The translations under genes were made by a program, and so were the position numbers. A stretch of DNA of 64,000 nucleotides from Alphaproteobacteria bacterium (lineage in GTDB: Bacteria; Pseudomonadota; Alphaproteobacteria; Bin95), in assembly GCA_964291285.2 (NCBI GenBank), contig OZ219785.1, positions 160,001 to 224,000 of the forward strand. Reading direction: 5' to 3'. The notes under the pieces were generated by a model. The model ran no database searches and was not told where the DNA came from. It was given only the letters and a program-made list of their open reading frames with translations. The stretch's first letter is position 1, and each line of letters starts with the position of its first letter. Of the stretch, positions 1,724 to 42,479 are shown piece after piece.

Positions 1724-2067
1724 TGGATCGTCCTCCCTGCCGCGGCCGTTGCCGGATCACGGGCGTGGTTTCCGGGGACGGCACTGCGGGCGCCCCGGTC
1801 GCCGCCACTGCAGAAACATGATGGGAACCCGTGGTCTTCTCAACCGGATCAGTTGAGTATTACCAATGGATTGACGACACAGATGCGTAACCCTGCGCGT
1901 GGCTACGGTCTTTTTTCCCGAACGATCAGGCCCGCAAACGCACGACAGCCATGGACGGCGCAGAGATGTGAAAGAAATTCTCGACTGCGATATAATGGGG
2001 AGCAGGTTCCCCGCCGCCTGCGGGTGCCGGGGGGCCTGGCCGAAACCAACCGGGTTGGCAAACCGAC

Positions 2068-5154: not shown

Positions 5155-5174
5155 GGCGCGGGACGGTTTTGAAG

Positions 5175-5651: not shown

Positions 5652-6439
5652 TGGCTATCGACCCGGCCTCCCTTCAAAATCTGCTGTGCGAGCGCCTTTG
5701 CGAAGAGGTGAGGATCGACCGTCGGCCCGACGGCGCGTTGATGCTCCGGGCGCATTTCGAATTTCCCGACGGCGACCGCTATCCGATCCACCTCTCGGCG
5801 GCGGCATCGGGAGGGCTTCGCCTGTCGGACCGCGGACACACGCTGATGCATCTCAGCTATGAGCATGAGATCGACTCCTTCATGGACGGGACCCGGGGCA
5901 TGCTCCTCGAACGCATCATGGGCGAAACCGGACTCGGCTGGGACGGGGACAGCGGGGCGCTTTGCCTCGATACGGCCCCCGAGAACCTGCCGCAGGCCCT
6001 GTTCGTCTTCGGGCAGGCGCTGACGAGGGTGTACGACCTGACCCTGCTTTCGCGCTCGAATGTCGGTTCCACTTTCTACGACGACCTTGCCGATCTCCTG
6101 TTCAGCTTTGTGGACGAGGTCAGGATCGAACAGAACTTCCAGCCGGATGTTCCGAACGCCGACGCCTACCCCGTGGATTATCGCATCGACGGGAAGGGCG
6201 ATGTTCCGCTTTTCGTCTATGGTGTGCCCAACCGCGACAAGGCGCGTCTGGCCACCATCATGCTGTCGCACTTCCACCGGCACGCGCTGCGCTTCGAATC
6301 CATCATCGTCTTCGAACGCCAGGCCGAGATTCCGAGGGCGGATCTCGCACGTCTGTCGGATGTCGGCGGCGACATGATCTCGTCGCTCGCGTCGCATGAG
6401 GATTTCAACCGAAAGCTCTTGCAGCGTGTCGCGGCATGA
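5648..6439 (+). CDS. DUF1828-like domain protein
   Basis: FEFPDGDRYPIHL...LRLSDRGHTLMHL N-terminal signature; C-terminal nuclease-like region (YPVDYRI). Confidence 0.7.
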   Translation: MMAIDPASLQNLLCERLCEEVRIDRRPDGALMLRAHFEFPDGDRYPIHLSAAASGGLRLSDRGHTLMHLSYEHEIDSFMDGTRGMLLERIMGETGLGWDGDSGALCLDTAPENLPQALFVFGQALTRVYDLTLLSRSNVGSTFYDDLADLLFSFVDEVRIEQNFQPDVPNADAYPVDYRIDGKGDVPLFVYGVPNRDKARLATIMLSHFHRHALRFESIIVFERQAEIPRADLARLSDVGGDMISSLASHEDFNRKLLQRVAA

Positions 6440-6460
6440 CGCGCCGTAGCCGATGAGGGA

Positions 6461-6682
6461 ATGGGAATGAAGCTGCATTATTATCCCGAGACGGACAGCC
6501 TCCATGTCGAGTTCAAGGCCGGGCCGGGCACCGAGACGCGGGAGGTGGCGGACGGTCTGAATCTCGATCTTGACGGTGATGGCAGCGTCGTGGGCTTCGA
6601 CATCGACCGGGCCTCGCGGCGTGTCGGTCTCTCGACACTGGAGGCCGAGGCGCTGCCGCCGCGCACGACCAGGGTGGCCTGA
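6461..6682 (+). CDS. DUF2283-like small protein
   Basis: MKLHYYPETDSLHVEF...LNLDLDGDGSVVGFDID pattern. Confidence 0.8.
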   Translation: MGMKLHYYPETDSLHVEFKAGPGTETREVADGLNLDLDGDGSVVGFDIDRASRRVGLSTLEAEALPPRTTRVA

Positions 6683-6685
6683 TCC

Positions 6686-9415: not shown

Positions 9416-9472
9416 CATGGGCCGCAGAGCGAGGAATATCCGCGCGGGAACGTTATTGGAGAATACCGGGAA

Positions 9473-10987
9473 ATGACTGACCGAACCGTGGACGAGTCCC
9501 TTGAACTCGAGGTGAACGATTTCGGGCCGATCGTTGAGGCGAAAGTAGACCTGCGCCCGCTGACGGTGTTCGTGGGCCCGAGCAATACGGGTAAATCTTA
9601 TCTGGCGATTCTCATATACGGACTGCATCGAGTGTTCGGCGGCGACTCATTTCTCGCGAGAAGAAAATTCCATAGAATATCCCGGTTTTTATTGGGACAA
9701 GGTGGTCGGGAATTGTCGGAAAGGAATGTTGAAGCTCTGCTTGATCTGGCAAATTTTTTCTCTGAATATCAAAAATCTAAGAACGACGAAAGTATTGCAT
9801 TGTCTCCATTAGCCGGCGAAGCTCTTCGCTCTGTATTCGGTGAGCTGGCAGACGAATTTTCCGATGAAATCGGTCGATGTTTCGGAGTCGGAGAAGCTTA
9901 TTCACTGATCCGACGAGGCCCAAAAAGGGAATCGCGCATTGTAATGAGGAGAAGCATATTCGGTCAATCTGATCTTGCAGAACATACAATTTCCCTCGCC
10001 CGGAATTCTGAATTCAAAGCTATGGTTCCTGATAAAATTCCAATCCCGATTGATTTCGAGAATCGGGGAAATATGAGCCGATTTTTGCGTGCGTTAACAT
10101 ATCATCTTGAAAAAGAAACAACTCGTGAATCTCGTCGCGAACTTGCGGCTTTGGAGATTTTGCCATTAGTCAGCAACCTAGTACTTTCATCGTTGATCGG
10201 TCCCTTGCGCTTGCCAGCATTTTATCTGCCCGCCGACCGGACCGGCATCATGCACGCCCACAGCGTGGTGGTTAGCGCTCTGATTGCAAGTGCGCCTGCT
10301 GCGGGGTTGCGGCCTGCCACCGGCACACCGATGCTGTCCGGGGTGCTGGCGGATTTCCTTGGACAGTTGATCGAAACTGCCCAATCTGCGCGTCTCCATC
10401 AAAAACAGAAACAGGATCTTGGCAAGGGTATCGAGAACGCCATTCTGGACGGTTCGGTTCGCATCGACCGCTTGGCTCCTGTCGATTATCCACGCTTTGC
10501 CTACCGGCCGCGCGGCTGGAAGGCCGACCTGCCATTAGCCAACGCATCATCCATGGTTTCGGAACTTGCGCCCGTGGTATTGTATCTTCGCCATGTGATC
10601 GAGCCGGGCAATATCCTGATCATTGAGGAACCGGAATCGCACCTGCACCCGGCGATGCAGGTCGTGTTCACCCGCCAACTTGCTGCGCTCATTGAGGTGG
10701 GAGTCCGGGTGATCGTCACCACCCACAGCGAATGGCTGCTGGAAGAGCTGGCGAATATTGTGCGGCGGTCGAAGCTCTCCAAGGCAGACCGCGGCGATAA
10801 CATCGCACTGCGTCCCGACCAAGTGGGTGTATGGCTGTTCAAGCCGAAGACAAGGCCCAAGGGTTCGGTGGTCAAGGAGATACGCTTGGAAGACTCCGGC
10901 CTGTATCCCTCCGGCTTCGATGATGTTGCAAGCGCCCTGCACAATGATTGGGCCGACACGGAAAGTCGCATTGAGGCCGGCTCGTGA
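9473..10987 (+). CDS. AAA_15/AAA_21-type ABC ATPase (defence-associated)
   Basis: GPSNTGKS Walker A, ASSMVSEL signature, IIEEPESHLHP, TTHS. Confidence 0.88.
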   Translation: MTDRTVDESLELEVNDFGPIVEAKVDLRPLTVFVGPSNTGKSYLAILIYGLHRVFGGDSFLARRKFHRISRFLLGQGGRELSERNVEALLDLANFFSEYQKSKNDESIALSPLAGEALRSVFGELADEFSDEIGRCFGVGEAYSLIRRGPKRESRIVMRRSIFGQSDLAEHTISLARNSEFKAMVPDKIPIPIDFENRGNMSRFLRALTYHLEKETTRESRRELAALEILPLVSNLVLSSLIGPLRLPAFYLPADRTGIMHAHSVVVSALIASAPAAGLRPATGTPMLSGVLADFLGQLIETAQSARLHQKQKQDLGKGIENAILDGSVRIDRLAPVDYPRFAYRPRGWKADLPLANASSMVSELAPVVLYLRHVIEPGNILIIEEPESHLHPAMQVVFTRQLAALIEVGVRVIVTTHSEWLLEELANIVRRSKLSKADRGDNIALRPDQVGVWLFKPKTRPKGSVVKEIRLEDSGLYPSGFDDVASALHNDWADTESRIEAGS

Positions 10988-11445
10988 CGGCGCTATTGGA
11001 CGACATCCGCAGGAAGATCGGGGAAAGTTGTTTTGTAAAGAAGTTGAGCAAGGACGGATGCCGGGTTGTGATGTCTGACGCGCCCACTCCCAGACTGGTC
11101 GTCGATTTCGATAAACCTGAATCGCCGCTAGCGGCGGATGAAATGCGCTGCGATTACCTATTGGTTGCCGAAGGTAAAGATACGCAGGGGTGGGTTATGG
11201 TTCTTGAGTTGAAGCGGGGACAGTTGCACGCGGATCAGGTCGCCAGCCAATTGCAGGCAGGTGCGTCTGCTGCCGAGAAGCTCATGTCTTCAGGCCATGC
11301 AATCCGGTTTCGCCCGATCGCCGTCTCTGGCAGAACGTCCATACATGAACGAAAACAGCTGAGAAAAAAAATCAGGTTCCACAAACACAGGGAACCCATC
11401 GTAAGGATGTCGTGTGGAGCCAAGCTGACAACAGCACTTCGCTAA
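10984..11445 (+). CDS. Hypothetical nuclease-like partner of the ATPase
   Basis: GTGA overlap with the ATPase; RCDYLLV...VLELK resembles a D...ExK motif. Confidence 0.65.
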   Translation: MTALLDDIRRKIGESCFVKKLSKDGCRVVMSDAPTPRLVVDFDKPESPLAADEMRCDYLLVAEGKDTQGWVMVLELKRGQLHADQVASQLQAGASAAEKLMSSGHAIRFRPIAVSGRTSIHERKQLRKKIRFHKHREPIVRMSCGAKLTTALR

Positions 11446-28068: not shown

Positions 28069-28394
28069 GGCCGTGGACTCATAAGCGCGTAGCCAGAGCC
28101 TGACAGTAGCGATCTTGATCATGGCGAGGAAGTTGGCCGCGAGCTTTTCGTATCGGGTGGCGATGCGGCGGAACTGCTTGAGTTTGTTGAAGGCGCGTTC
28201 GATCCGGTTTCGCAATTTATACAAGGGTTTGGAGAAAGCGTGCCTGGTCTTCGCGCCTTCGCGGTCGGGGATGATCGGGACGGCATCGTGTTGCTCGATC
28301 AGGTCACGGATCCATTTGGCGTCATAGGCCTTGTCGGCGATGAGGAAACTGTCGGGCGGCAGGGTCGCCAGCATGGCACCGGCGGCCGTGGTGT
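28069..28394 (-). mobile_element. 3' half of a split IS5-family (IS427-like) element
   Basis: TTAAGAMLATL...ADKAYDA...YKLRNRIERAFNKLKQFRRIATRYEK; end GGCCGTGGACTCATAAG preceded by TA. Confidence 0.9.
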
Positions 28395-28775
28395 AACACG
28401 AAGCAACCAATTTTGACGATTGTTTCATGTTTTGGGAAGCGCCGTCCTTCTCTCGTGTACGGCAACGGATACAGGGGCTTGGAGCACATGTCAAGGGGGT
28501 TGCCGGAAAGCCATACGAAGCAATCGTGGATGTGGCGGGAGCCCGTTGGTTGAATCCGGGGAACTGAAACTGCATTGCAGAATCCGTGGATACGCGCGTG
28601 GATCGCTGCCGGAACATGCTGGTCCGTAGAGATATCCGGGATAGGCATGGCGATCCGCCGAATCATGGCAAATGACGATGCCTGTTGTCTACCAGGGGTA
28701 TTCTGTCTGGAAATACGGAATGATTGTTAGGCAATTCGGGGGCGCCCGGGGCGCCAGACGGGAAGCGCCCGCGCC

Positions 28776-29383
28776 TCACCGGCTCCATGGCGGCGGTCCC
28801 TCGGCGCTCCAGTGCGGCGCGGGGTCGGTCGGCCATTTCTCCCAGGGCGGACAGAGGTATGCGGCGGTGACGTCCTGCGTGTCGGGCACGGGACAGTCGG
28901 GGCCGTCGGTGAGGAACGGGACCTGGCATGTGAAGGAACTGCTCGTCTTGCGCGCCTCGTTGATGCACCAGATGACGGCGCCGCCATACTTGTTCCAGAC
29001 ATGGGCGCGCCAGGGCCACACGCGGCTGAACAGCTCGTCCTGCATACGGGTCGGGGAGACGTATGCGCCGGTGACGAGGACGGCGATGGCAAGCGTGACG
29101 GCCGCCGCCCATGTGAGGTTGATCCTGATGCGGGTCCGGGAGCGTTCGCGGCGGCGGGCGGTTTCCTGGAGGAGGTATGCCCGGTCCACGCTCAAGGGCT
29201 GCCGGCGGGCCGGCGGCGCTTGCCCGGACCCGGCTGCCGGCCGGTTCGCGGGCGTCGGCTTCACCGGCGGCGGTGCGGCGGCCGGGGCCGGAGGGGATTC
29301 GGGAGCCGGGGCGGGGGATCGTTCCGGCGGGCCAGATCGGCCCTGAGGCGGTCGAGGGCGGTTTCGGGCGGTCTGTCGGTCAC
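28776..29383 (-). CDS. Hypothetical bitopic membrane protein (Pro-rich linker, TM helix, Cys/Trp-rich C-terminus); 5' end uncertain, possibly frameshifted
   Basis: TM WAAAVTLAIAVLVTGAYV; WRAHVWNKYG...WC...C; the plausible start (GTG, MTDRPPETALDRLR) is in another frame. Confidence 0.5.
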
Positions 29384-29447
29384 GGGCTGTCCCCCTGCGG
29401 CGGCGCGGCCGCGACCATACAGGCGATGGCGGGAGAGGACGAAGCTC

Positions 29448-29777
29448 ATGACGAGGGACAGGGAGGACCGGCGGCGCCAGCGCGCGGTCACGTTGACCGA
29501 CAGCGAGTGGCGCCGGCTGAAGGCGCGGGCGGACGAAGCGGGCATGCCGGTGTCGCGCTTCATCGTCCACCGGCTTGCGGAGGAGGACCCGGGTCCGCCG
29601 CCGGACCGGGGGCCGGGCGGGCTGCCGGCGGTGGTCTGGGGGCGGGTGGCGCGCGAGGTGCTGCTGCTCGGCCGGCTGGAGGAGGAGAGGCTGGCGGCCG
29701 CGCGCCTCTCGGAGGAGCGCGGCGCGCTCGCCGCCGAAGTGGAGACATGGCTCGCCCGGCAGGAGGAACTGGCGTGA
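29448..29777 (+). CDS. Ribbon-helix-helix (MobC/NikA-like) protein 1
   Basis: QRAVTLTDSEWRRLKARADEAGMPVSRFIV. Confidence 0.75.
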   Translation: MTRDREDRRRQRAVTLTDSEWRRLKARADEAGMPVSRFIVHRLAEEDPGPPPDRGPGGLPAVVWGRVAREVLLLGRLEEERLAAARLSEERGALAAEVETWLARQEELA

Positions 29778-29802
29778 GCGCGCCATACCGGGGGAGGTTG
29801 TC

Positions 29803-30123
29803 ATGAAGCAGGCGAAGTCGCGCTGCCTCTATCCGACGCCGGCGCAGTGGTCGCGTATCCAGGCGCGGGCGAAGGCGGCGGGCATGAAGGTCTCGCCGTT
29901 CCTGGTGGCGTGCGCGCTGAAGCGCGAGGCCGGGGGGCGGGCGGGCGAGCCTCTGGTGCTGACGGCGGAGGAACAGCGGGAGCTGTTCGACCGGGTGGCG
30001 CGGCTCGACCTTTGCAGCCGGACCATGCTGGCGCCGCTGCCGGGCATGGACATGGCGGCGTTCGAGGCGGTTGCGTTGCTCTGCCGGCTGTTCGCGCCCG
30101 AAGACCCGGGAGAGGCGCCGTGA
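29803..30123 (+). CDS. Ribbon-helix-helix protein 2
   Basis: RBS GGAGG; LYPTPAQWSRIQARAKAAGMKVSPFLVACAL...EEQRELFDRVAR. Confidence 0.72.
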   Translation: MKQAKSRCLYPTPAQWSRIQARAKAAGMKVSPFLVACALKREAGGRAGEPLVLTAEEQRELFDRVARLDLCSRTMLAPLPGMDMAAFEAVALLCRLFAPEDPGEAP

Positions 30124-30566
30124 GGCGCCCGCGCTCCGGGGTGAAGAAGATCGTGCGGTCCTTTTCCTGCACGGACCTGCAGCGCGACGAGATCGCCACG
30201 CGCGCGGCCGCGGCCGGCATGAACCTCTCGCCCTACGTGATCGAGTGCGGCCTGACGGTCGAACTCGACGCTGCCGAAGACGGGGCCGGCCCGTTGCCGT
30301 CGCTTGCCCTCGGCCGGGAGGAACAGCGCCGGCTGCACGACCGCGTCGCCGGGATCGCGGAACGCTGGCTGGGTCCGTCCGCGCCCGATCCGGCGGGCAT
30401 GGCGGACCTGCCGGCGGTGCTCGGCGTGCTGCTCGAACGGCTCATGACCGACATGGTCGAGATGGGGCATGAAGAGCGGATGCGCCGCCTGCTGCTGGAT
30501 GCCTTCGGCGAGGCCCGGGGCTCGGAGCTAGCCCGCCGGTATGCGGACAAGGCGCGCCGCCGCTGA
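30120..30566 (+). CDS. Ribbon-helix-helix protein 3
   Basis: GTGA overlap; SFSCTDLQRDEIATRAAAAGMNLSPYVIECGL...EEQRRLHDRVA. Confidence 0.72.
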   Translation: MRRPRSGVKKIVRSFSCTDLQRDEIATRAAAAGMNLSPYVIECGLTVELDAAEDGAGPLPSLALGREEQRRLHDRVAGIAERWLGPSAPDPAGMADLPAVLGVLLERLMTDMVEMGHEERMRRLLLDAFGEARGSELARRYADKARRR

Positions 30567-30711
30567 GCCTCGCACGGACATGCGAAAGGAAGGCGGCGGA
30601 CGGGAAACGGGACGGCGCCCGGCGCGGATTTCCCCGCAATTAAGACAGGCGCGGGACCGGGTACAAGAATAAACGCCCCGGACCGGAGTCGGGGCGACGT
30701 GCTGAACGTAC

Positions 30712-30746
30712 AAAGGAAAAGCCCCGGAACCCGCAGGCCCCGGGGC
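30712..30746 (-). terminator. Terminator downstream of ssb
   Basis: GCCCCGG...CCGGGGC hairpin followed by TTTTCCTTT on the minus strand; second hairpin at about 30674-30696. Confidence 0.65.
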
Positions 30747-30766
30747 GTAGTGGCGATGACGATGCC

Positions 30767-31186
30767 TCAGGCGGCGAGGTCCATCTCGTATGCTTCCGGG
30801 GGCGGCGCCGGCGGCCGGTTGTCGTTGGCCGCCCCGTCCGGCCTGGGGTCGAGGAAGTTGATGGAGCCGCGCGGGCCGACCAGGATCTCGGTGGTATGGC
30901 GGTCGTTGCCGTCGCGGTCCTTCCACTTCCGGGTGCGCAGCTTGCCGGTGACGTGCGCCTGGCGGCCCTTGGCGGCGTGCTTGCGCAGCATGGCCACCAG
31001 GCCCTCCTGGAAGACGGTGACCCGGTGCCACTCGGTCTGCTGCCTGTATTCGCCGGACTGGCGATCGCGGTAGCCTTCGTTGGTGGCGATGCTGAAATTG
31101 GCGACTTCGCCGCCGCCGGGGAGGCTGCGGAACTCGGGGTCCGCGCCCAGATTGCCGATCAGGTCGACGCGATTGAGGCCGTTCAT
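30767..31186 (-). CDS. ssb: Single-stranded DNA-binding protein (mobile-element type)
   Basis: LNRVDLIGNLGADPE, TEWHRV, GKLRTRKW; lacks the DDIPF tail. Confidence 0.93.
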   Translation of the reverse strand: MNGLNRVDLIGNLGADPEFRSLPGGGEVANFSIATNEGYRDRQSGEYRQQTEWHRVTVFQEGLVAMLRKHAAKGRQAHVTGKLRTRKWKDRDGNDRHTTEILVGPRGSINFLDPRPDGAANDNRPPAPPPEAYEMDLAA

Positions 31187-31403
31187 GATGATTTCTCCTT
31201 GCGAGAGGTTGTTTGCGAGTCGTTGCAACTCACCCCGAAAAGCCCTTTCCCGACCTTGCGGCGTCGATGCCAGCGCAGGCCGGGACAGGGTAGGCGGGGA
31301 TCGGGATGCCGGGCGAAGGACGCTGCGGAACTCACCCGGCGGGCGGGGCGAAGGGGGCGCGGACGGAGCGATGCCGCCCGCACCCGGGTCCCCGCCATTG
31401 CCG

Positions 31404-31718
31404 TCAGCGGGGGAACCGGCTCCGCTCCAGCATATGGCCCCAGATTGCGGAACTGCCCCAATATTGCACCCCCGAGTCGGCGGTCTTCTCGCCCTTGCAG
31501 ATGAGGATCTCGTTGCGCGCGGGGCGCAGCTCGCGGACGGTCTCCAGCGACAGGGTCAGCGGACGGCCCTTGCCGCCCGGCAGCCGGCGGATGTCACCGT
31601 CGATGCCGGTGCGGTACCGCTCGACCACATAGTGGTCGTCCTGCAGGCCGCGTCCGAACACGTGGACCAGAAAGCTGTTCGCACCGGGGCGGAAGGCGGA
31701 CGCATTGGTGGCGGGCAT
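31404..31718 (-). CDS. Hypothetical protein, 104 aa
   Basis: RBS AGGAG and ATG at 31718; preceded by a conserved upstream element. Confidence 0.6.
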   Translation of the reverse strand: MPATNASAFRPGANSFLVHVFGRGLQDDHYVVERYRTGIDGDIRRLPGGKGRPLTLSLETVRELRPARNEILICKGEKTADSGVQYWGSSAIWGHMLERSRFPR

Positions 31719-31851
31719 GTCGATAATCTCCTGTTGGAGGAAGGGGAGCGGGAGCCGGCCGCCCGGCCACCCGCAGGGATCGCATCGAAAACCCTTTCCC
31801 CACCTTCTTCCGGCGTCGATACCGCCAGGGCCGGGAGAGGGGAAACGGACG

Positions 31852-33156
31852 TCAGCGGCCGGCAAAGACGGCCGGGCCGGCGTCGGTCACGATCTCGACG
31901 TCGTCGAGCGTGAGCTTGGCGAAGGCCAGCGCGGCGGCGACCTCCATCGGAGTCTCCCAGGTGCCGTGGTCTGCGCCGTCGGCGATCCCGATCACGGTGT
32001 ATTGCGTCGGCAGGTCGGGCATGCCGCGATACGCGTAGCTGCGCTGCCGGTCGCGGCAGGGGCCGCATTCCCGCATGAGGGGTTCGGGCTCGCGGACGCC
32101 GCAGCGGGGACAGAGGCCGGCAGACAGGCGCTCGCGGGTCACGGCATGGTAGCGGCGGCGGTCGGTGGCGAGGCGCGCCTCGCGGCATTCCGTGCATGAG
32201 TCGAACCCGGGGTCGGGAGGCCGCTTCGTGCAATGGATGCAAACGCCCCGGGCGCGGGCCTCGGCGATCCTGCGATGCCATCTCGCGCGCTCGGCGGTGC
32301 GGCGCTCGTCCCGGCAGGGCCGGCACATTGTCGAGCCCTCGGCGGGAGAAGCCTTGCCGCAGCGGATGCAGAGCCCCCGGGAGGCCCGGGCGAGCACCCT
32401 GCGGTTGTACCCGTCCAGCGAGACGGCAAGACAGGCGTCGCAGGCCAGGCGCCCGGGCGCGGCGGGGTGGCGGCCGCAATCGAGGCACAATCCGACGGCG
32501 CGGCGGGCGTCCCGGCGGCGTCTGGCGGCCTGCTTGTCCCGTTCGGCGGGAAGCGGCCGGCAGTCCGGGCAGCGGCGGCTGCCGGGAACCGGCGGGGCCT
32601 CGCCGCACTCGATGCAGAGCGAGCGGTCGGCCTGCCGGCGGCGGCGGTCGATCCGGGCGCGGTATATCCGCCGGCGCGCGGCGAGGCAGTCGTCGCAGCA
32701 CGCATTGCCTTCGGCGGGCGCCCCGTTCCCGCACTGCACGCAGAGGCCGGCCTGGCGCCGTTCATCCTTGCGCTCCTGCAGGCGCCGGCGGCCGAGCGCG
32801 AGATGTTTTTCGTTGCAGGCCTCGCAGAGCCGCCGGCGGGGCTTTTCGGGCGTGGCGCCGCATTCCTGACAGAGGCCGCGGTTGCTCCGAAGCAGGCGGC
32901 GTTTGCGGGCGGCCTTGCGGTCGCTGGCGCGGCGGCGCTCCTGGCATTCCGGGCAGTATTTCGCCCCGTCGGGCGGGGAAACCTTGCCACAGTTCAAACA
33001 GAGGCCGCGCGCCGCAAGCCGGTCCCGGGCGCGCGAGGCGTTGGACCGCCGGGCGGGCGCGGCCCCGGTGGCGTTGCCGGAGCTGGCCCTGCAGCAATGG
33101 AAGCCCGCTGCTTCGGCGGGCGGATGGATATGAGCGGAAGCCGGCATGCCGGACAT
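31852..33156 (-). CDS. Protein with 8 tandem CxxC...CxxC (zinc-finger-like) repeats joined by Arg-rich helices
   Basis: GLCLNC/CPEC, GLCQEC/CEAC, GLCVQC/CDDC, SLCIEC/CPDC, GLCLDC/CDAC, GLCIRC/CRPC, GVCIHC/CTEC, GLCPRC/CGPC; RBS AGGAG before ATG 33156. Confidence 0.8.
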   Translation of the reverse strand: MSGMPASAHIHPPAEAAGFHCCRASSGNATGAAPARRSNASRARDRLAARGLCLNCGKVSPPDGAKYCPECQERRRASDRKAARKRRLLRSNRGLCQECGATPEKPRRRLCEACNEKHLALGRRRLQERKDERRQAGLCVQCGNGAPAEGNACCDDCLAARRRIYRARIDRRRRQADRSLCIECGEAPPVPGSRRCPDCRPLPAERDKQAARRRRDARRAVGLCLDCGRHPAAPGRLACDACLAVSLDGYNRRVLARASRGLCIRCGKASPAEGSTMCRPCRDERRTAERARWHRRIAEARARGVCIHCTKRPPDPGFDSCTECREARLATDRRRYHAVTRERLSAGLCPRCGVREPEPLMRECGPCRDRQRSYAYRGMPDLPTQYTVIGIADGADHGTWETPMEVAAALAFAKLTLDDVEIVTDAGPAVFAGR

Positions 33157-33723
33157 GGGCGACGTCTCCTGCTGGCGGGACGGGCGCGGGAGCCGGTCGC
33201 ACGGACGCCCCCCGCAGTAATCGCCCCGACAACCCTTTCCCGACCTTCCGGCCGGACAGGCCGGACGGCGGCGTTCGCCGGGAACGGCCGGCGGCGGCGC
33301 CCGGCCGGCCGCGCGGGAGAGGATTGCGACGGTCCGGACGGGGTGGGGACCGGGACGCCGGAAACCGGTCCGCCGCCGTTTCGGCTGCCCCGGCGGCCGG
33401 CGCTCCGGGCCGCCGCACCGGGAACCGCCGGCGGGCGTTCCCCCGGGGTCGCGCACGGAGGGGCGGAAACGGCGCCGGCTGAGAACCGCGTCGGCTTCGC
33501 CGATCCGGTTACCGGGTTACCGCTCGACCTGCCCTGTCCGCTCGCCAGGGCGGCGAAACGGGGCCGGGGCGGGCATGAACGCCTCGCCCTTCGACATCGG
33601 ATGCGGGCCGGCGGCCGGTCCCGACCGGCCGGGAAGAGCGCGTGCGCCGCCTGCTGCCGAACCGGTTTGAGGCGCGCGGCCAATTTGTGTTACCTTCCGC
33701 GGCCGGAACAGGGAGATTTAGCC

Positions 33724-34371
33724 ATGGCGAAACCCGGAATCACGCTTTCACCGCGCAAAGCGCACGGCGACCGTTGGGAATGGTGGAACCCCGATTTCGT
33801 CTTCGATTTTGTCGGTACCGATGGCAACGACGAGCTGTTCGGCGGCTACGGCGACGACACCATGCGCGGCGCCAAGGGCGACGACATGCTGTACGGCGGC
33901 CGGGGCGACGACCTTCTGAAGGGCGGCAATGGCGACGACACGCTGAAAGGCAGCTACGGCGACGACACGCTGAAAGGCGGCCGGGGCGACGACGACTTGG
34001 TGGACACGTCCGGCAACAATTTCATGTACGGCGGCCGGGGCGACGACTTCATGGTCGCCGGCGATGGCGACGATGTGCTCAAGGGCGGCCGGGACGACGA
34101 CATCCTGTACAGCGGCGGCGGTGCGGACCGTTTCGTTTTCGGCAGGAACAGCGGTTTCGACTCGGTCATGGACTATGAAGACGGCAAGGACAAGATCGTC
34201 TTCGAAGGCGGCATCCAGTTCTCGGACCTGATCTTCACTTACGAAGAGCAGCCCAGCGGCAGCCGCGCCGTAGCCAAAATCGAAGACGCTTCCGGTGAAT
34301 GGGCAGTTCATTTTGACAATTATGTAAAGGAAGAGGAATTGACCGAGTCCGATTTCGAGTTCCTCGGCTAA
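33724..34371 (+). CDS. RTX-type calcium-binding repeat protein
   Basis: Tandem GGxGDDxLx nonapeptides; RBS GGGAG and ATG at 33724. Confidence 0.9.
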   Translation: MAKPGITLSPRKAHGDRWEWWNPDFVFDFVGTDGNDELFGGYGDDTMRGAKGDDMLYGGRGDDLLKGGNGDDTLKGSYGDDTLKGGRGDDDLVDTSGNNFMYGGRGDDFMVAGDGDDVLKGGRDDDILYSGGGADRFVFGRNSGFDSVMDYEDGKDKIVFEGGIQFSDLIFTYEEQPSGSRAVAKIEDASGEWAVHFDNYVKEEELTESDFEFLG

Positions 34372-34419
34372 CCCGGAACCCAGAACGCTTTTTCCAACCA
34401 TCTTCAAGGGAAACAAACC

Positions 34420-35262
34420 ATGGCACGACCCGGAAAAACCATTACCGGAACCCCCGGTCATGATTATGCAGGACCTTGGCACTATCCGCAGGATGGCGGA
34501 CCGCGCTACCGCTCAAAGGACTTGGAGGGAACGAACCGCGACGACACGATCCGAGGCTTGGAGGGGCATGATCGAATCGTCGGCAAGCGTGGCGACGACA
34601 CGCTGTACGGCGGCGGCGGCGTGGATCTGATCCTGGGCAACGCTGGCCACGACACGTTGTACGGCGGCAACGGCGACGACCACCTGTTAGGCGATTCCGG
34701 CAACGACACGCTGAAAGGCGGCAACGGCGACGACGACATGTGGGGCGGCACGGGCCGGGACTCTCTTTACGGCGACGCCGGCCACGACGACATGTGGGGC
34801 AACGAGGGCCGGGACTCTCTTTACGGCGGCGACGGCGACGATGACATGGACGGCGGCGGCGACGACGACCTTCTGAAGGGCGGCGACGGAAGAGACACGC
34901 TCTGGGGCGGCAAGGGCAACGACACGCTCGACGGCGGCGACGGCGACGACTTCCTGTGGGGCAACAACGGCAACGATACCTTCATCTTCAGCGGGAACAG
35001 CGGAAAGGACGTCATCCGTGACTACGATGCGGATTCGGACACAATCCAGATCAAGGGAGTCTCCGGGATCGAAGATTCTGGCGACCTCTATCGCTTTTCT
35101 ACCAAGCTAGGCAACGACGATGCTGTAATAATCTACAAAGCAACAGAGGTTAATGAAGACAATGATGGCAAAGACGCCAGGGACAACGCAACGTGGGAAA
35201 TCAAGCTTCTTGATACGCAGTTGTCCGACGTTGATCTGTCCGACTTCGATATCATCGCCTGA
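34420..35262 (+). CDS. RTX-type calcium-binding repeat protein (paralogue)
   Basis: Tandem GGxGxDxLx repeats; C-terminal SDF as in the preceding gene. Confidence 0.9.
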   Translation: MARPGKTITGTPGHDYAGPWHYPQDGGPRYRSKDLEGTNRDDTIRGLEGHDRIVGKRGDDTLYGGGGVDLILGNAGHDTLYGGNGDDHLLGDSGNDTLKGGNGDDDMWGGTGRDSLYGDAGHDDMWGNEGRDSLYGGDGDDDMDGGGDDDLLKGGDGRDTLWGGKGNDTLDGGDGDDFLWGNNGNDTFIFSGNSGKDVIRDYDADSDTIQIKGVSGIEDSGDLYRFSTKLGNDDAVIIYKATEVNEDNDGKDARDNATWEIKLLDTQLSDVDLSDFDIIA

Positions 35263-35456
35263 CGGTTAAAACTTGCCGCCCCGGCGTTCGGGGCGCGTAT
35301 CTGCTTGCATAAGCGGCGCGGGGCCGTCGCCGGGCCGCGGCGAACGCTCGCAAGCTCGCTACACGCCGACCCCGGCGAGACCTTATCGCGCCTGAATGGA
35401 TACGGCAGAATCGAGCGCCCAACGCGCTACGCGCGGCGCTTGCCGAAACTGCCGGT

Positions 35457-35533
35457 GGTTCCCCCGCCCACGCGGGGATAGCCCCCGCCGTGCATCTGCG
35501 AATCATGACATTCGGTCTTGGTGTCTCCCGCAC
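35457..35533 (+). CRISPR. Solitary type I-E-like CRISPR repeat, possibly a mini-array with a degenerate second repeat
   Basis: GGTTCCCCCGCCCACGCGGGGATAGCCCC (35457-35485) with CCCCGC/GCGGGG stem; about 34 nt later GGTGTCTCCCGCAC; no cas genes in the window. Confidence 0.55.
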
Positions 35534-35884
35534 GAACGGCCGGCCTGCATCGCCCGGGTCACGCCGCAACGCATTCCTTCTCCGTCTCCGGGGCCTCGTC
35601 GCCATATGCCGGCCTCCGGAACGGTCCCGCGCGCTGTCTCTGTCCATGGAATCTGCTCTCATATGGTACCAGCAGGGCATGTTTTATACCACCGGCCACA
35701 GATAAGAACCGATTAGCCTCTCTCGGCGGAGATTACCTCTTGCAGTAGGAGGCCTCGGCTCAGGGGGCGAGCTGCGGAGGGAGGCTCTGCTATAGGTTCC
35801 AATCAACGACCGTTGGTATTACCTACATACCCATAGAATCACGATGGACTGTAATACCAGCGGCGCTGATTGCTGACTCATGAC

Positions 35885-37580
35885 CCTAAATCCGGCAGTT
35901 GAGTATGGCTTGGCCTTGCCGAATCCCTTGTAGTCTTCGGGTATGAGCGGCTTTTCAGGGGCCGAAGAGGCTCACCCTGTGGGTGATTATCCTGGCGCTG
36001 TGCGGGATGTCGCCCGAGCGTTCGTGAAGGTGGACACCTTCGGCGGCGCGGTTCATGTGGAATGGGACCCTGATGCGGCGGTGACGCCGCTGGGGCATCT
36101 GGCGTTTTTCGCGGAATAGCTGAAGGTGAGCGGTCGCTTTGACGCTTTGGTTGCGGACTGCCCGCTGCGGTACACGAGCCCGAACGCGCCGTCGAAGCGG
36201 GATGTCCTGGGGACGGTTCTTCTGTCGGTTCTGGCGGGGCAGTCTCGCTATGCGCACATCACGTCGCTGCGCGGCGACGGGGTGAACCCTGCGCTGCTGG
36301 GTATGGACAAGGTTGCGAGCGAGGATTCGGTGCGGCGCGGTCTGGAGCGGATCGGTGCGGATGTCGGCACATCGTGGCTTCAGGGCCATCTGGACGAGGT
36401 GGTCCGTCCGCTGCTGAGGGAGCCGTGGGTTCTGGACTGCGACACGACGATCAAGGCGCTTTACGGTCGTCAGGAGGGAGCGGTTGTGAGCTACAACCCG
36501 AAGAAGCCGGGCCGCCCCTCGCATGCCTGCCATGCGTTCCTGATGGCGGGCACGCGGCTTGTTCCGGATGTCGAGGTGGCGCCGGGCAACCATCACCATT
36601 CGAGGCGCGCGGCGCCGTCCTTGTGGGCGTTGCTCGACCGTCTTGGGCGGGATCGCTGGCCGCGTCTGGTGCGGGGCGACAAGGACTGGGGCAGCGAGGC
36701 CAACATGGCTTCGTGCGAGGCTGCGGGTCCGGACTATCTGTTCAAGCTGCGCCTGACGAAGGGGGCGCGCCTGCTTGCCGAGCGGCTGATGGCGCGGGAC
36801 GGCCGGGAGGATGCGGGCCAGGGCTGGTCGGGGATCGGGGCCGATCTGCGTCTGCAGGGCTGGAGCCGGACGCGCCGGGTTGTGGTGCTGCGCCGGCGGC
36901 TTCCTGCGACGCTGGCGCTGACGCGTGGCGACAAGGCCCGGGGCGAGCTGTTCCGGACCGGGGCGCAGCCCGGCACCGGGGTGTGGGAGTTCGCGGTGCT
37001 GGCGACCTCGCTGGACCTGGAGATACGCTCGCTGGCCCAGCTCTACCGCGACCGGGCGGACGCGGAGAACGGCTTCGACGAGTTGAAGAACCAGTGGGGC
37101 TGGGGCGGCTTCACCACGCGCGACCTGACGCGCTGCCGGCACATGGCCCGGCTGGTCGCGCTCATCTACAACTGGTGGAGCCTGTTCGTGCGCCTCGCCG
37201 ACCCCGACCATCACCGCGAGGCGATCACCAGCCGGCCGCTGCTCCTGCACGGGGTTGCCCGCCAGACCCACCACGCCGGCCAGACCCGGCTGACGGTGAC
37301 CTCCCATCACGGGCGTCGCAAGACGGTGATGGCGGCGCTGCGCCGGATCGCCGGCTTCTTCCGGTCGCTGACGCAAACTGCGGAGCAGTTGAGCGCCGGG
37401 GATCGCTGGCGCCGCATCCTCGCCGAGGCGCTCAGGAAATACCTCCATAGCCGCGAACCGGGGCGTCAACCCTGGCTGCCGCCACCCAGGGCCGCGACCA
37501 CGTGCTGAAATCCACGCCCAAATCCGACCGTTCACACTACCCCGAGACAGCGATCAAGCCCGTCAACTGCCGGATTTAGG
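35885..37580 (+). mobile_element. IS1380-like insertion sequence, 1696 bp
   Basis: Perfect 18-bp TIR CCTAAATCCGGCAGTTGA; no clear target duplication. Confidence 0.88.
35943..37508 (+). pseudogene. IS1380-like transposase with an in-frame TAG at 36117-36119
   Basis: VDTFGGAVHVEWDPDAAVTPLG...FFAE*LK; LDCDTTIK, RGDKDWG, YRDRADAENGFDELKNQWG. Confidence 0.85.
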
Positions 37581-37651
37581 ATCAACTGAAAAACCGCAAC
37601 CGGCCGAAAAATGTCAGCGAATAGGCGCGCTCTGTAACCGTCGCTAACACT

Positions 37652-38427
37652 GGGAGGATGCAGGCCAGGGCTGGTCGGGGATCGGGGCCGATCTGCGTCT
37701 GCAGGGCTGGAGCCGGACGCGCCGGGTTGTGGTGCTGCGCCGGCGGCTTCGCGGGCCTCTGGCGCTGACGCGCCGCGATGACGGCCAGGGCGATCTGTTC
37801 TGGGTCGATGGGCAGCCTGACGCCAAGCTGTGGGAGTTTGCGATCCTCGCCACCTCGCTGGACCTGGAGGTGCGCTCGCTGGCCCAGCTCTACCGCGACC
37901 GGGCGGACGCGGAGAACGGCTTCGACGAGTTGAAGAACCAGTGGGGCTGGGGCGGCTTCACCACGCGCGACCTGACGCGCTGCCGGCACATGGCCCGGCT
38001 GGTCGCGCTCATCTACAACTGGTGGAGCCTGTTCGTGCGCCTCGCCGACCCCGACCATCACCGCGAGGCGATCACCAGCCGGCCGCTGCTCCTGCACGGG
38101 GTTGCCCGCCAGACCCACCACGCCGGCCAGACCCGGCTGACGGTGACCTCCCATCACGGGCGTCGCAAGACGGTGATGGCGGCGCTGCGCCGGATCGCCG
38201 GCTTCTTCCGGTCGCTGACGCAAACTGCGGAGCAGTTGAGCACCGGGGACCGCTGGCGCCGGATCCTCGCCGAGGCGCTCAGGAAATACCTCCATGGCCG
38301 CGAACCGGGGCGTCAACCCTGGCTGCCGCCACCCAGGACCGCGCCCACAGGCTGAAATCCACGCCCAAATCCCACCGTTCACACTACCCCGAGACAGCGA
38401 TCAAGCCCGTCAAATGCCGGATTTAGG
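37652..38427 (+). mobile_element. 5'-truncated second IS1380-like copy
   Basis: Near-identical to about 36805-37580, including the right end (TCAAATGCCGGATTTAGG). Confidence 0.9.
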
Positions 38428-39210
38428 ATAAATCGCGGTCGTCCCCTGCTTCCGGTCCGTGGACTCTTTCGCGATTCCGGGGGAATCGACCAAGAACACC
38501 TTGTCCTTATCCTTCCACCGGTTGCACCATTGCTTTGCGCGCCACTGCAATTCGCAATTGCAGTTGACCATGAAGAATGTTCGAGGCGATACGTACCGCC
38601 AACGAACCGCACAGGTTCTGCTACCGAGCCCTTCCTCAAGCCGTCGTTGCCAGTGGCATACCTCCTCGGCATGGCCTCCTTTACGTCGGCTGTTGTGATG
38701 GTAGAGGATTACGGGCCTCCCTCCTTCTGATAACGCCGCTATTTCGCATTCGGGAATTCCCTTTCCGTGCCTTCTGCGACCGGGTCGAAACGACTCCTGC
38801 TCAATGAGGCCGTTGTCGGGATCGGCAAAGACCAAATCGCAATCTTGCAAATCCCTCCTGGTTTTACGAAACCACTTCTTCCTCCATGTCCCTTGTTCGT
38901 GCTGCTTGCATCCGTGGAAATCCAATTTCCCATCCGAAAAGACGGCATCCGCGAGAAGATCGGAGCTTTCAACTGCCCGGACGCTGCGATTTCCAGATTT
39001 TACGAGCCTGTAGAGCCTGTCGAATGTCTCCCTATCGCAATCTCGCCATTTCTTCGCGTTGCATAGATAACCTGTGTGTTTTCCGTCTTTCTTCTCTTCT
39101 TCGTCGGGGAAAAGATACCAGGCCACGCCCAGCTTCGATCCGTAGGAAAGCGCGCGAAGCAGACTGTATTTTGCGTAGTCGCCGATGTCTCCCGTATATC
39201 TGTCCTGCAT
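38410..39210 (-). CDS. Conserved hypothetical protein, possibly a Rossmann/methyltransferase-like fold; C-terminus runs into the IS end
   Basis: MQDRYTGDIGDYAKYSLLR, VFADPDNGL, VILYHH. Confidence 0.7.
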   Translation of the reverse strand: MQDRYTGDIGDYAKYSLLRALSYGSKLGVAWYLFPDEEEKKDGKHTGYLCNAKKWRDCDRETFDRLYRLVKSGNRSVRAVESSDLLADAVFSDGKLDFHGCKQHEQGTWRKKWFRKTRRDLQDCDLVFADPDNGLIEQESFRPGRRRHGKGIPECEIAALSEGGRPVILYHHNSRRKGGHAEEVCHWQRRLEEGLGSRTCAVRWRYVSPRTFFMVNCNCELQWRAKQWCNRWKDKDKVFLVDSPGIAKESTDRKQGTTAIYPKSGI

Positions 39211-39524
39211 TCGCGGCTTCCACCCCTCACTCCAGTCCCATCAGGCTGCGGGCGAAGTCGCGGGGGGCGAGGCGCGAGGCGTATTCTACACCGTGTTCGA
39301 GACGCTGAAGTCAAGTCTGGATACACCCGCCGCTGCGATGGCCCGAAACCTCTAACCCGGCGCGCGGCGTCATGCAATGCAGAAATTTGCGCTGCGGTGC
39401 GGCTGTGGTGCTTTTTCGGCAGCAGGAGATGGGGGTTCGCGTCCGGTCGGTGTTGTGCTGTGGCGTGTTGAGGCGAGGGCGGCGGTTGATTTTCGAGCGC
39501 GAGCGGAACCGCACAGCGGCATTG

Positions 39525-40715
39525 TCAGGAATCGGTCGCGGTTGCCCGGCCGTCACCGGCGCTGTCCGGTTCGCCCGTCATGGTCCGCGCCATCGCCTTG
39601 CCCACCCGCTCGGCCGCAGCTTCGATGTCGCGGTCGGCGAGATGGGCGTAGCGCAGCGTCATGCGCACATCGGAATGGCCGAGCAGGCGGGAGACGACCG
39701 GGACCGGCACGCCGTTCATGACGGCATGGCTGGCCATGGTATGGCGCAGGTCATGAAGGCGCACATCCCCGATGCCGGCTTCGCGTCTGACGCGGTACCA
39801 GAGCGGCAGGTCGGGGCTGCGCGGGCGGGCGGGGTCGCGCGGCGAGGGAAACACGAACGCGCTGCCCGTGCGCGGCTGCCGGTCGAGGATGCGCCGCGCC
39901 CGGCTGCCGAGCGGGACCGTCCTCGGCCCCGTCTTGCTGTCCGAGAGGGCCAGCATGTCCTCGCGAACTTCCGACCATCGCAGGCCCGTGATCTCGCCCC
40001 TGCGGCAACCGGTGAACAGCAGCAGCCGGACGATGTCGGCCTGCTGCCTGTCGCGGCTTCGGGTCTGCGCGTCCAGAACACTGTGCAGGCGTGCGAGTTC
40101 CTCGCGGGACAGGAACCGCATGAGCGCCGGGCGGCGGTTCCTTCTTGTGCCCTTGGCCGGATTGACTTCGATGTGGCCGCAGGCGGCGGCGAAGGTCATG
40201 ATCTGCTGCAGGATGTCGAGGGCGCGGTTGGCGCCGCCGGGCGCGGTCCGGCTGTAGCGGTCGAACCACTGCCGGACATGGGCCGGGGAAATGCGGTCGA
40301 GCGGCTTCGAGCCGAATGCCGGAAGCAATTGTCGCCGGAGTATCCCGGACGCGGTTTGCTGGCCCGACGGCTTGCAGCGGTTGAAATGGGCCTCCTTCCA
40401 CGGGCCGGCGACGAAATCCCGGAACAGCGGGACCGCGCCGGGCGGTTTGGCAGTCTCCTCCGGCTGCGGGGCCGCCTGGCGTTCAAGAGCCTCCCGGCGG
40501 GCTTCGGCGGCGCTCTTCACGCCGACCGGGCCGAGCGAGACGCGCCTGGTGCGCCCGCCGCTGTCGAGCAGCAGCACCCAGCTGCGCCCGCCGGCGGGCC
40601 GCACCCGGACGCCGAGGCCGGCGATGCGCGTGTCCCGGACCGTATATTCCCGCTCGCGGGGGCGGAGACGGGCGACGGCGGCGTCGGTCAGCTTCATCCG
40701 TTCCCGGCCCGCCAT
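39525..40715 (-). CDS. Tyrosine recombinase IntB, copy 2 (intact)
   Basis: Arm-binding N-terminus (LTDAAV...GLGVRVRP-x-G); TGCRRGEI, SKTG, HDLRH, LLGH, TLRY. Confidence 0.93.
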   Translation of the reverse strand: MAGRERMKLTDAAVARLRPREREYTVRDTRIAGLGVRVRPAGGRSWVLLLDSGGRTRRVSLGPVGVKSAAEARREALERQAAPQPEETAKPPGAVPLFRDFVAGPWKEAHFNRCKPSGQQTASGILRRQLLPAFGSKPLDRISPAHVRQWFDRYSRTAPGGANRALDILQQIMTFAAACGHIEVNPAKGTRRNRRPALMRFLSREELARLHSVLDAQTRSRDRQQADIVRLLLFTGCRRGEITGLRWSEVREDMLALSDSKTGPRTVPLGSRARRILDRQPRTGSAFVFPSPRDPARPRSPDLPLWYRVRREAGIGDVRLHDLRHTMASHAVMNGVPVPVVSRLLGHSDVRMTLRYAHLADRDIEAAAERVGKAMARTMTGEPDSAGDGRATATDS

Positions 40716-41839
40716 CAGTCTGCCTCCAGCACGGCGCCGACCGTCTCGACAGCGTCCTGCACCATGGCGTCGGCGACATGGGTATATTTCAGCGTGGTTT
40801 CCGGCCTGCGGTGGCCCAGCAACCGGCCGATGGCGAGCACCGTCACGCCCTGCCGGAGGGCAAGGCTCGCATGCGTATGGCGCAAATCGTGAAGGCGGGC
40901 GTCCTCCAGGTCTGCCTCGGCGCGGACCCTGCGCCAGAAGTGGTCCAGCCAGCTTCCGCTCCGGGGCCGGTCGCTATCCGGGGCCGGGAACACATGGCGG
41001 CCTTCCCGCTCAAGGCCGTCGAGAACGGCCCGGGCCGGCTCCGACAGCCAGACTGTCCTCGGCCCCGTCTTGGAGTCGCGAAGAAACAGGCGGCCTTCCC
41101 GGTAGTCGGACCATTGCAGGGTGAGGATCTCGCCCTTGCGGCAGCCGGTCAGCAGCAGCAGGCGGATGACGGCGACATGCTGCGGCCAGCGGGCCTCATG
41201 CGCCTTGAGCCGCGCGGACAGGCGGCGGATTTCCTCGTCCGGGAGGAACCGCTCGCGGCCCTTGCGGCGGTAGCGGCGGATGCCCCGGCAGGGGTTGGAC
41301 CCTTCCGGGCGCAGGCCCATGGCCTCCGCCTCCCTCATGATGACGGACAGCACCGGCATCGACCGGTCCGCCGCCACCGGCGTCGCGCGCAGGCGGGCGA
41401 ACCAGTTCCTTACCTCCTGCCGGTCGATGGCGGCAACCGGACGCCCGGCGAAATGCGGCAGAAGCCGGTTGCGCAGATAGCTGCGGTTGACAGCGAGCGT
41501 TCCGGCCTTCCAGAGCCTTGCATGGCGCTCGAACACGGTTTCGGCGACGGCTTCGAAGAGCGTCTCGTCCGGCGTGAGCGGCGCCTCCCCGCCGCGCCTG
41601 ATCGCGGCAAGCATGTCCGCAGCCGCAGACCGCGCGTCCGTGACGCTCATCGACCCGGCGTCGCCGACGATCTTCCAGATACGCACGCCGCGATGCTGGC
41701 AGTGGATGAAGAACTGCTTGCGGCCCGAGGGCGACACACGGACGCCGAACCCCCTGAGCCTGCCGTCGCGGACCTCGCGGACGGACCTGCGGGGCTTGAG
41801 CGCCTTCACGCGCGCCTCGGTAAGGGTAGTCTTCGCCAT
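40715..41839 (-). CDS. Tyrosine recombinase IntA, copy 2 (intact)
   Basis: LTEARVKAL...GFGVRVSPSG; TGCRKGEI, SKTG, HDLRH, LLGH, TTLKY; TGATG overlap with intB. Confidence 0.93.
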   Translation of the reverse strand: MAKTTLTEARVKALKPRRSVREVRDGRLRGFGVRVSPSGRKQFFIHCQHRGVRIWKIVGDAGSMSVTDARSAAADMLAAIRRGGEAPLTPDETLFEAVAETVFERHARLWKAGTLAVNRSYLRNRLLPHFAGRPVAAIDRQEVRNWFARLRATPVAADRSMPVLSVIMREAEAMGLRPEGSNPCRGIRRYRRKGRERFLPDEEIRRLSARLKAHEARWPQHVAVIRLLLLTGCRKGEILTLQWSDYREGRLFLRDSKTGPRTVWLSEPARAVLDGLEREGRHVFPAPDSDRPRSGSWLDHFWRRVRAEADLEDARLHDLRHTHASLALRQGVTVLAIGRLLGHRRPETTLKYTHVADAMVQDAVETVGAVLEAD

Positions 41840-41955
41840 TGCGTTTCTCCCGGCTCCGGTTGCAGCCGGGGAACGGGCCCTTGCGACCCGCTTGCCCGAC
41901 CGCTGCATTTCGGGAGAAAAAACGACGCTATGTCAGATAGTTAGCACCGGCAGGT

Positions 41956-42479
41956 GCGGCCGTGGTGTCGTGCGCCTGGCCAGGGCTGAGGTCATAGCGG
42001 ACCGGCAGGCCGCTCACGTCCGACACGGCGTGGATCTTCGTGGTCAGTCCGCCACGGGAACGGCCCATGCAACGATCCGGACCCCCTTTTTTGATCCCGC
42101 CGCATGCTGGTGAACCCGGACGCTCGAACTGTCGATCATCTGCACATTGCCGTCGTGAGCCTCCACCACCGCATCCATCAACTGATCCCAGATGCCCTTC
42201 TTGCGCCAGCGGTTGAACCGGTTGTAGCAGGTCGTACAAGGCCCGTAGTGCTCCGGCAGGTCTCGCCACGGCGCCCCCGCGCGAAGCACCCACAGAATGC
42301 CGTTCAACACCCGCCGGTCGTCAACCCGCGGCACCCCACGGGTCTTGTTCGGCAGCAACGGCTTGATAACCCGCCATTCGAAGTCCGTCAGATCGTACCG
42401 GCCCATGTCCTCGCTCCCTGAAGTTGGGAGCTTGAATCACAGCTTCGCTGAAGAAGAAACCCCTTATGGGTACACGACC
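41956..42479 (-). mobile_element. 5' half of the split IS5-family element (orfA 42044-42406 and start of orfB)
   Basis: MGRYDLTDFEW...WRDLPEHYG; GRSRGGLTTKIHA...LSPGQAHDTTAA; end matches the 28069 end at 14/17 nt; TA flank at 42480-42481. Confidence 0.9.

Follow-up and report, generated by a model that had tools for sequence, protein, structure and literature searches.

Solitary CRISPR repeats on mobile elements, and RNA anti-CRISPRs of subtype I-E (Racrs), are already in print. In the parts of the source available, nine solitary repeat units were tested and all of them inhibited CRISPR when expressed (Camara-Wilpert et al. 2023, PMC10651486); I-E Racrs are known experimentally (RacrIE1 and RacrIE2), and Racrs are often expressed as a small RNA from their own promoter. 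The locus described here resembles them in being a single full-length repeat that is intergenic, away from cas genes, on a mobile element, and of the same subtype as the system of the host. By contrast with those units, its carrier is an integrative mobilisable element—i.e. not a phage or a plasmid—the promoter scan predicts none for it, and the I-E system of the host was found broken. It also differs in that the repeat is nearer to that of a congener (27/29 positions) than to that of the host (19/29). What is new here is at most a new repeat family, found on an integrative element.

Other described arrangements also invite comparison. Virus-borne mini-CRISPR arrays (PMC6858448) likewise place a repeat and then a spacer-sized stretch on a mobile element, and the crRNA-like regulatory RNAs of cas loci and phages (PMC10120712; 10.1101/2024.10.29.618823) have the same layout of repeat plus spacer-sized sequence, as far as the available parts of these sources go. 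The present locus differs from both in that the supposed second repeat is at chance level and the searches gave the "spacer" no target. Orphan CRISPR remnants, left by array decay or by insertion sequences (IS), share with it an isolated repeat, spacer-length unique flanks, and an IS-rich junction, and an IS66 element likewise interrupts this genome's own I-E array, close to which a two-repeat remnant lies. Here, however, the lineage of the repeat has neither cas genes nor an array in the genome, and the repeat sits in a mobile element rather than in a former CRISPR locus. The I-E locus of the congener, G009, carries the same repeat family, also as a single repeat, but there the repeat follows cas2 and an AT-richer leader, whereas in our case it adjoins neither a leader nor a cas gene.

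The window, i.e. the whole stretch of 64,000 nucleotides that was analysed, corresponds to G000:C1:160001-224000, where G000 is this genome. In window coordinates, the features that surround the repeat are as follows.

28385-41968, no strand assigned: integrative (probably mobilisable) element of 13,584 bp, with a second copy at C2:434351-447929.
34420-35262, + strand: RTX calcium-binding repeat protein gene, 280 aa (PF00353, E 1.9e-48).
35263-35420, + strand: 3' flank of the RTX gene, common to the paralogous loci C1:805xxx and C3:133xxx.
35421-35456, + strand: upstream unique flank, 36 nt, GC-rich, resembling a coding fragment and lacking leader features; homology to the paralogues stops at 35420.
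35457-35485, + strand: type I-E CRISPR repeat, solitary and full-length, with exact letters and a core equal to that of array repeats.
35486-35517, + strand: downstream unique flank of spacer length (32 nt), with a fuzzy junction at 35509-35521.
35522-35684, - strand: truncated dispersed segment of 163 nt, with five other genome copies at 90-91% identity.
35686-35822, no strand assigned: dispersed element of 137 nt, with 27 further genome copies.
35881-37585, + strand: 1.7-kb insertion sequence, DDE transposase at 36126-37508, with 28 further full-length copies.
39525-40712 and 40715-41905, - strand: two tandem tyrosine integrase genes at the right end of the element (PF00589 plus arm-binding domains).

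An earlier note on this DNA had reported a 29-nt repeat starting at 35457, and it is present exactly as written: positions 35457-35485 of the + strand read GGTTCCCCCGCCCACGCGGGGATAGCCCC in the window letters, with a 6-bp stem (CCCCGC/GCGGGG), the loop CCAC, and then AUAGCCCC. At up to 3 mismatches, the 29-mer has one match in the 64-kb window, and 0 of 100 dinucleotide shuffles matched. Two exact copies occur in the 6.13-Mb genome (C1:195457 and, on the - strand, C2:440834), both of them inside the 13,584-bp element, one in each of its two copies. Allowing up to 8 substitutions adds 17 genome matches, all with 7 or 8 mismatches, and brings up no second copy near the solitary repeat. Downstream of the repeat come CGCCGTGCATCTGCGAATCATGACATTCGGTCTT and then GGTGTCTCCCGCAC at 35520-35533; the letters are there as the note described them, with a spacer-sized 34 nt between the repeat and GGTGTCTCCCGCAC. 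The hairpin of the repeat, with its 4-nt loop, is kept in both the minimum-energy and the centroid folds of 35421-35521, and the fold of this patch is no better than that of shuffles (z = -0.8). In an Rfam scan of 30000-42000 with E up to 5, the only matches were three weak and unrelated ones, all away from the repeat.

We find that the 22-nt core of the repeat, GTTCCCCCGCCCACGCGGGGAT, occurs exactly in at least 80 loci of a species-representative genome collection. Among the loci listed, 55 hold three or more copies, 2 hold two, and 23 hold one. The loci with three or more copies have a period of mostly 61 nt and lie on about 40 records, and the records with arrays include Dehalococcoidia, Chloroflexota, Rhodospirillales, Acetobacteraceae, Aquidulcibacter, and others. 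The consensus of the family, among the same listed loci, is GGTTCCCCCGCCCACGCGGGGAT-(A/G)-G-(A/T/C)-CC, followed by a 29th position that varies. A single change separates the window 29-mer from common array variants (28/29 identical); being full-length and this close to working array repeats, it is not decayed.

Closer relatives (one genome per species) were compared as well. When up to 3 mismatches are allowed, the repeat occurs in only two of 37 genomes of the same family, namely G000 and G009; the latter belongs to the same genus, and its repeat is 27/29 identical to that of the window. In G009 it follows a complete operon (cas3-cse1-cse2-cas7e-cas5e-cas6e-cas1 and an I-E-type cas2, by Pfam) and an 80-nt leader, which also precedes a 30-repeat array on another record (L017). 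Because the core is found in arrays with a 61-nt period, and because the cas-linked copy in G009 comes after a leader common to a 30-repeat array, the sequence at 35457-35485 is, by these comparisons, a genuine type I-E CRISPR repeat whose predicted transcribed orientation is the + strand of the window. This agrees with the I-E-like character first attributed to it. A chance hairpin or terminator at these positions was also considered, and is ruled out because the core matches array repeats exactly. The G009 locus itself (G009:C1:602000-616000, L092) has a complete I-E operon, a leader, and only one repeat, i.e. an array without a spacer. The 181-nt stretch around the repeat is found in 0 of 16 other genomes of the genus; in that search, five genomes besides G000 and G009 gave 25-34-nt matches (E 1e-3 to 1e-2), which are unrelated GC-rich stretches and were set aside.

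Single copies of the family are found elsewhere. Among the matches listed, 25 loci hold a single match (23 genomic and 2 viral), and for 15 of these no further copy lies within 400 nt when up to 8 mismatches are allowed. Of the 15, at least 5 abut a repeat-like end and are array edges; the clearly solitary family copies adjoin ordinary chromosomal genes (for example, MFS transporter/isochorismatase, Lon-like protease, and Cache sensor). The two viral cases are IMG/VR contigs that carry one family copy, GGTTCCCCCGCCCACGCGGGGATGGCCCC (L090 at about 1990-2030 and L091 at about 165-200), just upstream or at the start of a large-terminase gene. Judged by sequence and position, each is a candidate viral solitary repeat unit.

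The repeat was said to lie inside a mobile element, and this proved correct: the segment of 13.6 kb is an integrative element, probably mobilisable, with integrases, direct repeats at its ends, and a second copy. Both copies are bounded by a 10-bp direct repeat, GCCGTGGTGT, which in the window lies at 28385-28394 and 41959-41968. The window copy interrupts an IS5-family element, intact copies of which carry GCCGTGGTGT once. The element encodes an SSB, NikA-like proteins, two RTX calcium-binding repeat proteins, IS, and the two integrases, and it belongs to a family with many partial and full paralogues in the genome. The two copies differ by one 5-nt indel only (34780-34784 of the window, deleted in the C2 copy). 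Having diverged so little over 13.6 kb, the copies are too young to tell whether the repeat is being conserved or is decaying. The deletion shifts the frame of the second RTX-repeat gene, which reads 139 aa to the first stop compared with 280. In two sister elements (C1:805400-808900 and C3:125700-133400), the corresponding zone is full of transposase genes and has no CRISPR repeat, so the motif is not conserved in these homologous elements.

Within the element, the repeat lies in a patch of about 100 nt (36 nt, repeat, 32-36 nt) that is unique in the genome save for the element duplicate. On the left, this patch is met by the 3' flank of the RTX gene, which extends to 35420, and on the right by the truncated 163-nt segment, which begins at about 35517-35522. 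The RTX gene ends 195 nt upstream of the repeat, on the same strand. The surrounding DNA is non-coding, in agreement with the earlier description: two overlapping ORFs, 35252-35680 (-) and 35396-35716 (+), match no Pfam family, and their third-position GC is 0.60-0.66, compared with 0.74-0.87 in four neighbouring genes measured. A coding reading of these two ORFs was rejected on composition and on the lack of a Pfam family; the only coding-like genes within 1 kb of the repeat are the RTX gene and the transposase. The IS load is heavy, with the 137-nt element, the 1.7-kb IS, and a 71-nt element (37580-37650, about 23 copies) nested in one another, and further IS fragments beyond the 1.7-kb IS.

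No sigma-70-like promoter or terminator was predicted on the + strand of 34900-36000, using a consensus scan that is crude for such an organism, and comparison of the upstream flank with the leaders of same-family arrays gave background scores only. The putative spacer was meant to be compared with the genome (including the cas promoters), with phages, and with sister DNA; this yielded no target and no meaningful seed match. An ungapped search of the genome itself with both 32-nt flanks, at up to 9 mismatches, left the best non-self matches at 8-9 mismatches, and in a blastn search against PLSDB and phage records only the repeat part matched, to plasmid CRISPR repeats. Likewise, no protospacer appeared in an IMG/VR scan of the flanks in which every sixth base was free, and nothing was found in a metagenome scan with flank 24-mers or in the 37 family genomes at up to 3 mismatches. 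The 10-base seed has 162 matches in this GC-rich genome, two of which are the locus itself, and the rest lack extension; one lies 0.9 kb upstream of cas3 as part of a five-copy repeat. In these searches, no spacer match to a target was obtained, either in full or as a seed with a PAM.

The host does have a type I-E Cas6e, in agreement with the proposal of a Cas6e-processed RNA. A single Cas6e gene is present in the genome, on C3, together with cas5e, cas7e, cse2, cas1, and cas2, and the host I-E arrays have 6 and 22 repeats, with a repeat that reads GTGTTCCCCGCTCGTGCGGGGATGAACCG in the transcribed sense. The absence of cas genes that had been reported therefore holds for the element and not for the genome, in which I-E and type II cas genes are present. 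The type II locus (C1:152885-158006) comprises cas9 (1046 aa), cas1, cas2, and ten 36-nt repeats with 29-30-nt spacers, and lies 2-7 kb ahead of window base 1.

Comparison of the solitary repeat with that of the host gives a divided result. The two are identical at 19/29 positions, including the whole CCCCGC/GCGGGG stem and the following AU, and differ at 10/29, including 4/8 bases of the would-be 5' handle. Recognition by Cas6e centres on the stem and its 3' base, and both are identical in the host and solitary repeats.

We find that the type I-E system of the host is broken. Its operon lies in three pieces on two replicons (C3:1393700-1399200, C2:452826-455537, and C2:533883-536868). The C-terminal part of cse1 (profile positions 306-449) is on C3 and adjoins an IS, and the N-terminal part (profile positions 1-303) is at C2:533883-535115 with the same kind of IS adjoining; the IS beside both halves is of the same DruA/DDE type, and the split falls at about profile position 303. 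The cas3 gene stands alone at C2:452826-455537, and the array is cut by an IS66 element, its two-repeat remnant being 770 nt away. The genome has no array or cas system with the solitary repeat. The Cas6e proteins of the host and of G009 align over only 49 residues, and the two I-E lineages are therefore distant. A search of the genome with the host spacers gave 3 marginal partial matches, none of them in the element.

Given this evidence, we favour, with modest confidence, the view that the repeat is a stranded array fragment carried as passenger DNA; its origin as a piece of an array and its lack of function are together the most likely account. We prefer this account because of the anatomy of the junction and the spacer-length flanks, because the repeat is absent from sister elements and relatives, because no promoter, leader, or target was found, because the cognate system is missing and the host system is broken, and because this genome visibly fragments CRISPR arrays. 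The flank lengths, 32-36 and 36 nt, are what breaks at the neighbouring repeats would leave. The lone family copies beside ordinary chromosomal genes in other genomes would fit the same explanation.

The source was probably a spacer-repeat-spacer scrap of an array from the second I-E lineage, which is intact in the congener. Illegitimate or IS-driven recombination may have placed the scrap in the IS landing zone between the RTX genes and the integrases, and it would then have been copied passively when the element was duplicated. It most likely has no dedicated function in the present host: if it were transcribed by read-through from the RTX gene, the hairpin could be bound and cut by the host Cas6e, and nothing indicates that this is put to use. 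If the repeat is only a relic, it provides a small, clean case of IS-driven scrambling that scatters CRISPR repeats into mobile DNA, and it warns against taking the mere presence of a lone repeat on a mobile element as proof of an anti-CRISPR.

Several observations sit less easily with a stranded fragment, and the same observations argue for an active unit. As far as sequence can tell, the repeat is intact, full-length, and 28/29 identical to working repeats, and its subtype is that of the host, with an identical stem and AU. It is also solitary, intergenic, and in the cargo zone of a mobile element, which would place it within the definition of a solitary repeat unit; in the available parts of PMC10651486, the SRUFinder-type definition asks for an intergenic sequence that fully matches a known repeat and lies on a mobile element. 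Accordingly worded, the rival explanation is that of a Racr-type solitary repeat unit, in which + strand RNA would be made by RTX read-through or from an unrecognised promoter, its hairpin would be bound by Cas6e and its flanks coated by Cas7, and the Cascade subunits tied up in this manner would leave the element protected. The target would be the host I-E system or, more plausibly, the second I-E lineage met in other hosts. We regard this as possible but doubtful.

Precedent speaks for it, since I-E Racrs are experimentally known and since catalogued I-E units can differ markedly from the host repeat, some of those in the available supplement of PMC10651486 apparently diverging about as much as this one does. 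The cognate system in G009 and the lone family copies upstream of a terminase gene on two viral contigs point in the same direction. The 22-nt core was not found in either orientation in the seven available supplementary files of PMC10651486, which may be incomplete. Against an active unit are the lack of any predicted promoter or terminator, and the scarcity of coding-like genes around it, i.e. only the RTX gene and the transposase within 1 kb; the sole plausible promoter region nearby, the segment that elsewhere precedes a mobilisation gene, would point antisense. The 10/29 differences from the host repeat, including half of the 5' handle, also count against it, as do the absence of the repeat from sister elements and the lack of host spacers that target the element. 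Finally, with cse1 split and cas3 detached, there is little for such an RNA to inhibit in this host.

Public sequencing data keep this explanation alive, because arrays with the same or a similar repeat co-occur in two DNA runs (X1 and X2) that contain the window stretch. In contigs of these runs at 85% likeness, depth peaks on 35452-35499 at about 39,900 and 28,700, compared with summed depths of 560-11,300 and 380-560 in neighbouring bins. The contigs also show joints that lead from the end of the repeat back to its start with 25-30 other letters between them (at least 4 examples for X1 among the matches listed). Since the repeat recurs at a spacing of 25-30 letters and the depth peaks there, arrays with this or a very similar repeat exist in these samples. 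The runs look metagenomic (millions of contigs), so that the arrays may belong to another organism; whether the repeats are the same or only similar, their co-occurrence is faintly suggestive of an active unit rather than a fragment, and the array hosts might conceivably be potential hosts of the element.

A decoy aimed at the second I-E lineage, present in congeners and perhaps in the co-occurring arrays, instead of at the broken host system would serve the wider host range of the element; we consider this version unlikely, though the sequence comparisons would accommodate it. If the repeat is expressed and active, it would extend the range of known RNA anti-CRISPRs by an integrative element and by a new I-E repeat family, and would present a natural case of a decoy that fits other hosts better than its current one.

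The earlier note had also proposed that the repeat opens a mini-array, closed by a degenerate half repeat. According to this proposal, the repeat, the 32-34-nt "spacer", and the degenerate repeat would form a mini-array or crRNA-like regulatory RNA that guides borrowed host Cascade against a competitor or cas genes. Such RNAs are known, in the available parts of the sources (10.1101/2024.10.29.618823; PMC6858448), and there is indeed a spacer-sized gap between the repeat and a sequence that somewhat resembles its 5' half. However, the half repeat did not withstand scrutiny. Local alignment of the repeat with the following 75 nt gives a score of 8, which is reached by 27% of 5000 random 75-nt genome windows, and the host's own repeat scores 9 on the same 75 nt, as do 10% of random windows or better. 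Of the 36 columns of the alignment near the repeat, 24 are matches and 8 contain gaps, and random windows do as well often enough to put it at chance level; it is our own local alignment, set beside the SRUFinder criterion of no partial repeat with more than 70% identity within 100 bp. The resembling sequence has no counterpart of the repeat's 3' half and is part of another dispersed element, as the first bases of the 163-nt segment are the proposed half repeat. The five sister copies of that segment lie upstream of a NikA-like mobilisation gene (for example, a NikA-like ORF adjoins the copy at C2:451454-451617), and none of the five is preceded by a CRISPR repeat.

Two or more repeats separated by a spacer, i.e. 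an array, are thus not what this locus contains, and the "spacer" fares no better. Its best non-self matches in the genome differ at 8-9 of 32 positions, no target turned up in PLSDB, phage records, IMG/VR, metagenomes, or the 37 family genomes, and the seed matches lack extension, the only one near cas3 being in a five-copy repeat. The gene for the large subunit of Cascade is also broken. The mini-array is therefore largely refuted, and we consider it very improbable.

Equally improbable is a role at the DNA level, either as a site for recombination or attachment with CRISPR arrays or as a structural hairpin or terminator. In its favour, one published proposal for solitary repeats is integration into CRISPR repeats (in the available parts of PMC10651486), and the element encodes two tyrosine integrases; against it, the core of the element junctions, GCCGTGGTGT, is unrelated to the repeat, which lies about 7 kb from either element end, the genome has no array with the solitary repeat to recombine with, and no T-run follows the hairpin.

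The integrase pair itself is widespread, with at least 14 further full-length copies (77-95% identity) over all replicons. About 5 kb separate the C2 copy of the element from the detached cas3, and the interval between them (C2:447929-452826) contains an AbiEii toxin gene, an SNF2-like fragment, and a truncated mob module.
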